Source: Escherichia coli
Lineage (GTDB): Bacteria > Pseudomonadota > Gammaproteobacteria > Enterobacterales > Enterobacteriaceae
Strand: one strand, 5' to 3'
Assembly (NCBI RefSeq): GCF_003334385.1
Contig: NZ_QOWN01000012.1
DNA length: 64,000 bases
In this document: positions 37,201-37,954 of the stretch, one piece after another
How positions within the stretch are numbered: the stretch's first letter is position 1
Layout of the letters: every line of letters starts with the position of its first letter
The notes under the pieces: model-generated
What the model was told of the DNA's origin: nothing
The model's input: only the letters and a program-made list of their open reading frames with translations
Database searches by the model: none
Made by a program: the position numbers and the translations under genes

Positions 37201-37467
37201 TTGTGTGGATTTTCTGTGGTAGCGGATCCTACCACGACTCTGCAGGTTAAAAACACTGGCAGTCTGAGTGTTAATCGGTATGGATGGATTAACATCTGGA
37301 TGGCTATTTTAGGTCAATTCTTCACCCTATTTCCACTTTTTTTTGAATCGTGTCTCATTCTGTTAAAAACGTGGCTGGAAATTTTTCCTGACAATGCCGG
37401 CATTCTGCGTATTTATCTTTTGCAATTTTCTGCCATTGTGGGGTATAAAACGCGGCGCGCGGCTTAA
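37201..37467 (+). CDS. yqgD: Small protein YqgD (annotation-level ORF; start uncertain)
   Basis: ORF in the position and orientation expected for yqgD between metK and yqgC; weak coding evidence. Confidence 0.4.
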
Positions 37468-37679
37468 ATAAAAAGCACACGACGTTTCTTTCGTGTTGCC
37501 ACTTCCAGCCGGGTTGAAATCAGAGTTTTGGCTTGTGGGTTCGTCTTAACAGGCGGCCGTGGAGGTGATACGAAATAATGAACCGTTGTCTGCTGCTTAA
37601 CCTGTCTCACCGCTCTGGTGAAGATTCGTTCCCCGCACTCTGCATCTCTGCTTTGCATACCTGCCGATGTTATACCCAT
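37464..37679 (-). CDS. yqgC: Small protein YqgC (71 aa)
   Basis: 71-aa ORF at the expected position; weak coding evidence. Confidence 0.4.
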
Positions 37680-37814
37680 CTCGGCGCTTCTCAGGATTCA
37701 AGAGCTGGTTACAGTTACTGAGGACTGAACAAGGGCGCTCTTGTAAAAACAAGAGTTTTCTCGTGGTTTCGCCGAACTTTCACACTTACGTTCGGTTATG
37801 TGCTTAATAATGTT

Positions 37815-37946
37815 ATGAAAAAGAAACCGGTTGCGCAGTTGGAGCGTCAGCATTCACTGCTGGAAAATCCATGTGCTTATGGGTTGTTATCGCAGTTCCA
37901 GGCTGCGATAGTCGTTAACTGTTTTACACTTAATAAAATAATTTGA
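37815..37946 (+). CDS. yqgB: Small protein YqgB (43 aa) immediately upstream of speA
   Basis: ATG at 37815, translation [43 protein letters not shown], stop 37944-37946, 8 bp before the speA start. Confidence 0.6.
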
Positions 37947-37954
37947 GGTTCGCT

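Follow-up and report, generated by a model that had tools for sequence, protein, structure and literature searches.

The metK-speA locus and its small open reading frames

The window analyzed here is a stretch of 64,000 nucleotides (nt) of Escherichia coli DNA (contig NZ_QOWN01000012.1), and our subject is the region in which metK and speA diverge (36006-39931), with metK on the minus strand (36006-37160) and speA on the plus strand from the ATG at 37955. RefSeq annotates yqgD, yqgG, and yqgB, in this order, on the plus strand ahead of speA; yqgC was dropped, and yqgG, a plus-strand frame of 47 amino acids (aa) antisense to yqgC, is annotated instead. An earlier sequence-only reading had described a cluster of small open reading frames (ORFs), yqgD, yqgC, and yqgB, from metK to speA. 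These ORFs exist; however, yqgC is encoded on the minus strand, and the reading overlooked yqgG. Of the small ORFs in this interval, two (yqgD and yqgC) are annotation artefacts, and two (yqgG and yqgB) are real upstream ORFs (uORFs). With a probability of roughly 0.55, we read the speA leader as a uORF-controlled Rho attenuator combined with translational coupling from yqgB to the Met1 start of speA, yqgD and yqgC being chance ORFs. The features of the locus are collected in Table 1.

The 5' leader of the speAB mRNA measures approximately 498 nt from the transcription start site (TSS, about 37457); it is conserved and highly structured, and it probably sets the amount of arginine decarboxylase (ADC). 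Identity over the metK/speA region was 99.2-100% in 12 records taken across the ranking of matches, and a 901-nt query was found with at least 95% identity in all 5,426 complete E. coli genomes. For the comparison between genera, 80 genome loci, ranging from Escherichia to Erwinia, Pantoea, and Mixta, were fetched via the SpeA N-terminus. Divergent metK-speA synteny was kept in every locus with both genes on the fetched contig, and the intergenic region of these loci measured 633-959 nt, with a median of about 800. The comparative set is an alignment of 75 intergenic regions from Enterobacteriaceae and Erwiniaceae. An Rfam covariance-model scan of 36900-38300 on both strands, with E values up to 1, returned no match, and our literature search found no published mechanism for the speA leader.

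Small ORFs are frequent by chance: 89 ORFs of at least 20 aa overlap the 6 kb examined, and an ORF of at least 25 codons ends within about 21% of arbitrary 27-nt windows of the metK-speA intergenic region. What rises above this level is retention across genera, which the alignment shows for yqgG and yqgB but not for yqgD or yqgC. Three-nucleotide periodicity, judged from substitution counts on the tree, was absent from yqgD, yqgC, and yqgB and present only in the C-terminal half of yqgG.

Table 1. Features of the metK-speA region, in coordinates of the window. SD, Shine-Dalgarno sequence.
Feature	Position	Strand	Description or basis
yqgD ORF	37216..37467	+	83 aa, GTG start (88 aa from TTG 37201); judged not a gene
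Four tandem degenerate met boxes	37305..37274	-	AGCCATCC AGATGTTA ATCCATCC ATACCGAT
metK promoter-like site	-35 37335..37330, -10 37311..37306	-	promoter scan
speA promoter	37420..37457	+	TTGCAA 37420-25, 18-nt spacer, TATAAA 37444-49, GC-rich discriminator, TSS ~37457
yqgC ORF	37464..37679	-	71 aa, older annotation, antisense to yqgG; judged not a gene
Structured 5' domain	37475..37567	+	RNAalifold consensus and pair counts
P1 hairpin	37475-99	+	compensatory changes at 3/7 pairs
Anti-SD/SD helix	37500-07 with 37560-67	+	anti-SD CACUUCCA pairs with yqgG SD UGGAGGUG; 8 bp, enclosing P2 and P3
P2	37508-34	+	apical loop takes 20-162-nt insertions
P3	37537-58	+	compensatory changes at 4/4 pairs
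yqgG uORF	37578..37721	+	47 codons, C-rich, G-poor (rut-like) body; RefSeq, Pfam PF23505
H1 hairpin	37663..37685	+	GCCGAUG...CAUCUCGGC inside yqgG; consensus fold, weakly supported
YqgG C-terminal motif	37695..37709	+	Asp40-Ser41-Arg42-Ala43-Gly44 (D-S-R-A-G); fixed amino acids, varying codons
H2 terminator-like hairpin	37727..37769	+	core stem 37737-44/37749-56, U-tract 37756-59; terminator scan
H3 hairpin	37772..37795	+	CCGAAC...GUUCGG, just upstream of yqgB; compensatory changes at 3/6 pairs
yqgB uORF	37815..37946	+	43 codons, without SD; stop TGA 37944-46 inside speA SD (uGAGG)
H4 hairpin	37882..37920	+	inside yqgB; arms are the 'conserved' yqgB codons; consensus fold
H5 hairpin	37948..38000	+	encloses 3' part of speA SD and AUG 37955-57; codons 2-3 pair with codons 11-16
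Internal speA start	38022..38035	+	invariant SD AGGAGGU, in-frame AUG (Met27)

yqgB and the speA start

In the alignment, yqgB is conserved as an act of translation and hardly as a peptide. A uORF of at least 25 codons reaches the speA start in 74 of the 75 taxa; relative to the speA ATG, 34 of these stop at -11, with the TGA inside the SD, and 40 at +5, with the TGA of ATGTCTGA. The lone exception is a 24-codon ORF ending at -2, and the null expectation is about 21%. The yqgB start is retained, and the frame is still open to the speA start despite insertions of 51-125 nt, and where an element resembling the enterobacterial repetitive intergenic consensus (ERIC) within yqgB shifts the stop register, the ORF reaches the speA start all the same. 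The uORFs of Erwiniaceae also reach this start though their peptides are unrelated, and in Pantoea the YqgB peptide is essentially unrecognizable. In E. coli, 8 nt lie between the yqgB TGA and the speA ATG; the sequence-only reading was thus right that the 43-aa yqgB ends 8 bp before the speA start, and the stop codon also overlaps the speA SD. Its suggestion that yqgB is a leader or a translationally coupled ORF is supported by the two stop registers described above.

At the peptide level, YqgB scored 90.1 bits (cut-off 35) with the NCBIfam family NF033844 (small_YqgB), covering profile positions 1-40. Its start codon was seen by INRI-seq, and yqgB is listed among experimentally validated uORFs and small proteins (Adams 2021). 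The sequence-only reading had looked to codon-level conservation as a check on yqgB, and this was absent. The ratio of nonsynonymous to synonymous differences (pN/pS) against E. coli was 0.5-0.7 between genera, with pS depressed, compared with 0.01-0.06 for speA and metK. The motifs G-L-L-S and A-I-V-V-N correspond to the codons GGG-UUG-UUA-UCG and GCG-AUA-GUA/C-GUC-AAC, which are invariant at synonymous sites and form the arms of H4. The changes in the H4 stem are wobble-only, and in roughly half of the taxa its variable apex lengthens the helix by sequences that differ (mean z -1.4 versus apex shuffles). Because yqgB combines the lack of periodicity with this pN/pS and with nucleotide-invariant codons, the YqgB peptide is probably not a functional product and is probably dispensable. 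As a side observation, a mini-ORF of three codons (AUG-UUA-UGA, 37810-37818; AUG-AUA-UGA in other genera) overlaps the yqgB AUG, and it could be a start-stop element or part of the initiation region of this SD-less uORF.

The same data bear on the reading of YqgB as a small 'acid stress response protein' that acts in trans, its adjacency to speA reflecting operon co-expression and not cis regulation. This reading can draw on a curated NCBIfam equivalog, on validated translation, on the conservation in Enterobacteriaceae of the N-terminal MNKKPVAQ and of a 13-residue block, and on a few codons that vary only at synonymous third positions (e.g., Val6, Ala7, and Val34). It can also draw on deletion phenotypes in acid and colistin survival: a Salmonella strain lacking yqgB was reported to be sensitive to acid and colistin, with rescue by polyamines (2026 paper). 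However, the same deletion gave less speA and speB mRNA and less ADC, polyamines reversed the phenotype, and complementation is not mentioned in the paper, as judged by a search of its text; the reported phenotypes may be cis effects on speAB. Moreover, the conserved blocks are codon-invariant and pair together as H4, the C-terminus varies in register and length (43, 48, and 55-90 aa), and the protein becomes unrecognizable in Pantoea while the ORF-to-speA-start arrangement persists. Over-expression of YqgB resulted in a heat-shock (aggregation) signature in a 2025 screen for arrest peptides, and aggregation stress is not what this reading would favor. With the missing periodicity, the high pN/pS, and the depressed pS added, we regard a trans-acting YqgB as unlikely.

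The anatomy of the speA start itself would be in line with coupling. H5, which is predicted to enclose the start codon, has a free energy of -21.2 kcal/mol, and 98.4% of cells are paired over 36 taxa, with wobble changes only and no compensatory pairs. The codons of its arms show a major-codon fraction of 0.90 versus 0.71 for codons 31-120; likewise, the synonymous sites of speA codons 1-30 (37955-38044) are unusually fixed, at 0.88-0.90 versus 0.71 for codons 31-120. The arrangement of yqgB, H4, H5, and the speA start thus has the look of a translational coupling device. Further downstream, Met27 is a known alternative start of speA, also seen by INRI-seq, which yields a SpeA shorter by 26 aa.

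Rho-dependent premature termination in the speA leader was demonstrated by lacZ fusions and northern blots with rho R66S (Adams 2021). According to the same study, short transcripts accumulate from the leader, the bicyclomycin-sensitive region starts at about 37821, and a Term-seq 3' end at MG1655 position 3085854, which corresponds to 38022, has a Rho score of 3.09 and the flag 'uORF'. The authors described a probable 'yqgG-yqgB-speAB transcript' and named yqgB-speA as a candidate for uORF-dependent regulation (Adams 2021). The Rho-dependent 3' end at 38022 coincides exactly with the internal SD of Met27.

yqgG and its C-terminal motif

The second real uORF, yqgG, was discovered by initiation ribosome profiling with Onc112 and retapamulin, and the tagged protein was detected (Weaver 2019). 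YqgG matched Pfam PF23505 with 129.7 bits over residues 1-47. Among 5.8 billion proteins, homologues amounted to only 17 entries, all of them close enterobacterial, so that the family has no deeper reach. Nearly all of the 75 taxa retain the start codon (ATG; TTG in Buttiauxella), which is preceded by a very strong, conserved SD, GGAGGUGAU. The frame measures 42-51 codons in Enterobacteriaceae and mostly 44-46 in Erwiniaceae, where three outliers range from 35 to 57.

The C-terminal motif DSRAG was invariant or nearly so in 39 non-redundant taxa, with two to four synonymous codons per residue: Asp is encoded by GAT in 20 taxa and by GAC in 19, Ala by four codons, and Arg42 by AGG (16), CGG (11), AGA (9), and CGA (3), that is, by both codon families. 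Since the residues are fixed while the synonymous codons turn over, the C-terminus of YqgG is under selection at the amino-acid level. Most yqgG ORFs of Erwiniaceae end in D-[ST]-x-A-G-stop. The Gly codon of the motif lies 17-23 nt upstream of the invariant ACAAGGGC, and the yqgG stop shifts by 0-6 codons. Directly after R-A-G, the taxa have Y, N, Q, R, K, H, I, or a stop; a conserved Pro never occurs at this place. With respect to regulatory codons, the Arg codons of YqgG number four and stand apart, without a tandem run.

Two of these Arg codons have peculiar usage: at Arg42 (37701-37703) only rare Arg codons occur in the 39 taxa, never CGU or CGC, and Arg30 (37665-37667) is always CGA. One cause of this usage may be the sensing of rare Arg-tRNAs, another a need for purines in the RNA.

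The body of yqgG differs from its surroundings in composition. The median C/G ratio is 1.45 in yqgG, compared with 0.76 before and 0.84 after the ORF, and 71 of 72 taxa lie above 1.2 in yqgG; in E. coli, 37577-37700 is the sole segment of the leader with more C than G, the ratio rising to 1.9. The skew persists in those 71 taxa even where the sequence is unconserved. A Rho loading site would be expected to show such a composition, and we therefore take the body of yqgG as a putative Rho utilization (rut) site; the region mapped as Rho-sensitive follows 100-250 nt downstream. Within yqgG, H1 shows one-sided changes or none in its pairs and coincides with the codon-invariant stretch T-C-R-C-Y-T-H-L-G; the 12 residues ahead of DSRAG are likewise codon-invariant and overlap H1.

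Hairpins between yqgG and yqgB

The yqgG stop lies 15 nt upstream of H2 in E. coli, and 3-27 nt separate it from the extended stem across Enterobacteriaceae. All seven core pairs of H2 (7/7) show compensatory changes, and none of 500 shuffles reached the observed score. The free energy is approximately -10 to -13 kcal/mol across taxa, the tail reads UUUUCUC, and a lower stem is possible between GAAC..GGG and CUC..GUUU. In a divergent metagenome-assembled genome (MAG) of Enterobacteriaceae, a different stem with a U-rich tail stands at the H2 position. Additionally, two blocks of 17-19 nt (37724-37740 and 37756-37774) flank H2 and are nearly invariant across Enterobacteriaceae; this invariance exceeds what a terminator or a pause needs. 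H3, the next hairpin, has a folding z-score of -2.6.

An H2 that terminates transcription intrinsically, under the control of yqgG translation through an alternative pairing and with Rho in a secondary role, would correspond to classical attenuation. The covarying hairpin with its U-tract shortly after the yqgG stop, its replacement by another stem with a U-rich tail at the same place in the divergent MAG, and the rare Arg codon that is always found at Arg42 agree with this idea. However, the Term-seq 3' ends in the supplementary tables examined from Adams 2021 include none at H2, and the termination that was shown experimentally is Rho-dependent and maps downstream. In addition, yqgG lacks a run of regulatory codons, and a conserved antiterminator was not found: pairing of the yqgG 3' end with the 5' arm of H2 gave only -2.9 kcal/mol in a truncated RNAalifold, and duplexes between the upstream sequence and this arm were no better than shuffles (mean z about 0, 72 taxa). 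Classical attenuation at H2 is therefore improbable in our estimation.

Further pairings were rejected. The E. coli pairing of CAAGAGC (37699-37705) with GCUCUUG (37737-43) and a small ACAAGG:UCUUGU hairpin showed no covariation with the H2 changes and were rejected as conserved elements. A long-range exchange between arms of H3 and H5 (CGAAC/GUUCG) was discarded as well, as the compensatory changes of H3 are not mirrored in H5.

The structured 5' domain

Upstream of yqgG, the leader is predicted to fold into a domain in which the yqgG SD is paired (Table 1). The covariation scores of P1 and P3 were reached by none of 500 shuffles. The helix of SD and anti-SD is uninformative on covariation because all 8 bp are invariant; in Erwiniaceae, the yqgG SD pairs with other partners than in Enterobacteriaceae. 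The sequence-only reading had supposed that the speA leader holds features hidden from the ORF track, and these conserved structures, together with the Rho-dependent termination (Adams 2021), agree with it. A Term-seq 3' end maps to 37581, 14 nt past the domain and at the yqgG start codon (Adams 2021), which suggests a stable 5' fragment of about 125 nt of the speA leader, either a decay intermediate or a small RNA (sRNA) derived from the 5' untranslated region (UTR).

Insertions recur at three spots of the leader, comprising ERIC-like elements of about 122-125 nt and others of 20-162 nt: after the TSS (37469; loci L009, L023, L029, and L033), in the P2 loop (37520; L013, L051, L068, and others), and near the yqgB end (37932; L039).

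These structures raise the question of whether the leader works as RNA only, that is, as a structure that binds a protein, an sRNA, or a ligand, or as a source of a 5' UTR-derived sRNA, with the uORFs as tolerated passengers that stay open because the RNA is conserved. Indeed, what is conserved in yqgB and in the central part of yqgG is mostly the nucleotide sequence, invariant blocks flank H2, short transcripts accumulate, and an apparently stable 5' fragment has its end at 37581; the lack of an Rfam match means that such an RNA would be undescribed. However, both frames remain open even over stretches of freely varying sequence (the N-terminal half of yqgG and the central part of yqgB), through insertions and through the change of the stop register. 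Furthermore, the synonymous turnover in DSRAG with fixed amino acids is not expected of an RNA element, and both uORFs are translated. For these reasons, a leader that acts solely as RNA seems unlikely to us.

yqgD, yqgC, and the two promoters

The sequence-only reading had considered yqgC and yqgD as annotation-level ORFs, and the comparison agrees, as neither is conserved. In the alignment, yqgD is intact solely in Escherichia, where one species-level lineage (Escherichia sp. L006) has it cut to 43 aa; outside this genus, the aligned start codon is absent (a few taxa keep an open frame without a start) or early stops occur. The frame sits upstream of the speA TSS, the conserved block within it is the metK promoter-like site and putative operator, and its 3' end overlies the speA promoter. 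Therefore, yqgD is promoter DNA carrying a chance ORF and not a gene; our literature search found no paper on yqgD with title or abstract on this locus. The yqgC ATG is kept; however, its ORF varies from 0 to 140 aa between taxa, with stops scattered throughout. No ribosome density was seen on yqgC, and the SPA-tagged protein was undetected (Weaver 2019). yqgC is a chance ORF antisense to yqgG.

The best-conserved block inside the yqgD ORF consists of the metK promoter-like site and the four tandem met boxes, whose 8-mers agree with AGACGTCT at 5, 5, 4, and 4 of 8 positions. MetJ is the repressor of metK, and from this established repression the four boxes can be taken as a likely MetJ operator.

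The hexamers and the discriminator of the speA promoter are invariant or nearly so across genera. The speA 5' UTR clone of Adams 2021 begins at GCGCGGCTTAAAT, which places it at 37457, and runs to the base before the ATG. At 37450-37469, an invariant stretch, CGCGGCGCGCGGCU, comprises the GC-rich discriminator and the initial transcribed sequence, as is typical where promoters respond to guanosine tetraphosphate (ppGpp) and DksA; in Dickeya, an effect of ppGpp on speA expression is described in a 2025 paper.

Comparison with known systems

The leader was compared with described attenuators. It shares with the uORF-controlled Rho attenuators of the tnaC, speFL, mdtU, and mgtL type the Rho-dependent termination in the leader or early ORF, a translated uORF on a C-rich tract, and a conserved peptide. 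From the trpL/hisL type it has the hairpin and the U-tract, and neither the conserved antiterminator nor the run of regulatory codons.

The closest parallels and their limits are as follows. As in tnaC-tnaAB, a short translated uORF with a conserved C-terminal peptide precedes Rho-dependent termination downstream in the leader, a putative Rho loading region lies under or adjoining the uORF, and the regulated gene encodes an amino-acid-catabolizing enzyme. In contrast to TnaC, an arrest peptide that blocks Rho, YqgG is a candidate for arrest; the rut-like segment of the speA leader lies inside the ORF and not just after the stop; and the speA leader adds a second, coupled uORF (yqgB) and a gated SD. 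With speFL-speF, whose arrest peptide senses ornithine, the leader shares a polyamine-pathway decarboxylase behind a small translated ORF and Rho-dependent attenuation, and with Salmonella orf34-speF, which reportedly senses Arg codons (PMC6386406), it shares rare Arg codons in the uORF. However, sequence similarity is absent, the Arg codons of YqgG are single and not consecutive, and speA encodes a biosynthetic enzyme and not an acid-inducible one. The mdtU-mdtJI leader came from the same 3'-end mapping study, and it is likewise polyamine-related, with a uORF of conserved C-terminus and Rho-dependent termination (Adams 2021); regulation by spermidine was demonstrated for mdtU, whereas the speA leader is known for Rho dependence and uORFs only.

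At its downstream end, the leader resembles systems of stop/start coupling with a masked start, as the yqgB stop falls in the speA SD (-11) or at +5 (ATGTCTGA) and the AUG is predicted to lie in a hairpin of -21 kcal/mol, which a ribosome coming from upstream would open. It differs in that the upstream cistron, yqgB, has 43 codons without evident constraint at the protein level and that speA has a second, independent start (Met27) with a strong SD of its own. Concerning SecM and the RAPP-type arrest peptides, YqgG ends S-Q-D-S-R-A-G, and the arrest segment of SecM is S-Q-A-Q-G-I-R-A-G-P, both with an essential-looking Arg two residues before Gly. However, the residue after the Gly of YqgG is variable or a stop, the spacing from SQ to RAG differs, and there is no detectable homology; this likeness is a resemblance only.

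Proposed mechanism

Translation of yqgG and yqgB, the lack of it for yqgC, and termination by Rho in the leader were published earlier. Our addition is the comparative view of the leader, and it favors a cis role for yqgB and, for yqgG, a C-terminal peptide under selection above a rut-like tract. The gating of the SD, the rut function, peptide-mediated pausing, and the opening of H5 by yqgB translation are steps that we infer.

In the proposed mechanism, the structured 5' domain would gate the access of ribosomes to the very strong yqgG SD. Ribosomes on yqgG, possibly paused by the nascent DSRAG peptide, would cover the Rho loading site inside yqgG, and this cover would decide the share of RNA polymerases that escape Rho in the region of yqgB and the speA start. 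Ribosomes on yqgB would then melt H4 and subsequently H5, the predicted cover of the speA AUG; terminating at the speA SD or slightly downstream of it, they would pass initiation on to Met1 of speA. The same coupling would also shield early speA RNA from Rho. Polyamines, arginine or agmatine, and pH are candidates for the physiological signal. The coupling would concern only the long (Met1) isoform of SpeA, and the leader may accordingly also set the ratio of the two SpeA isoforms. Each of the alternatives discussed above explains less of the comparative pattern than attenuation by uORFs and Rho with coupling at Met1.

Several observations weigh against this reading. The SD/anti-SD helix, the lower stem of H4, and H5 are nearly invariant, so covariation cannot prove them, and the folding z-scores are modest (-1.4 to -2.6); the thermodynamic z-scores of individual E. 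coli hairpins served at most as secondary evidence. The rut assignment of the yqgG body was made from composition alone. The overall pN/pS of yqgG is 0.3-0.66 between genera (0.11 within Escherichia), and clear peptide-level constraint is limited to the last five conserved residues. YqgG had no meaningful match among PDB sequences, arrest peptides included, its motif has no A-site proline of the kind found in SecM/RAPP-type arrest peptides, and when 38 small ORFs of E. coli were screened for arrest peptides (2025), PepNL and NanCL were the only ones named. The aggregation signature indicates that the YqgB peptide accumulates when over-expressed. Finally, the reading does not account for the invariant blocks that flank H2, for which no partner or binding factor was found.

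As a tentative extension, whose odds we place clearly below even, YqgG could be a sensory nascent peptide. DSRAG would pause or arrest the ribosome on a metabolite of the pathway (a polyamine, arginine or Arg-tRNA, or agmatine), at a fixed 17-23 nt from the invariant H2 module, and would thereby set the access of Rho to the rut site in yqgG and hence the transcription of speAB.

Significance

The product of speA catalyzes the first step of the arginine route to putrescine, and repression of speA by polyamines has been reported since the 1970s-90s. Moore and Boyle, in 1991, reportedly observed repression by putrescine with speA-lacZ fusions. To our knowledge, no regulator or mechanism has been assigned to this repression. 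A polyamine-responsive speA leader, which the sequence-only reading had suggested, is plausible. The leader offers parts that can be mutated: a gated SD, a yqgG with a selected five-residue C-terminus over a rut-like tract, a covarying hairpin module, and a coupling uORF.

YqgB carries the annotation of an acid-stress protein, and a role as a target of colistin adjuvants was suggested for it in 2026. Its peptide is barely constrained according to the comparative data, and the deletion phenotype may be a loss of speAB expression in cis, which bears on this claim. If our reading is true, the 'acid stress protein YqgB' would be a cis-acting coupling ORF over RNA hairpins and not a functional protein; and if YqgG is a sensory peptide, feedback control of the biosynthetic arginine-decarboxylase route would gain the mechanism that it has lacked.

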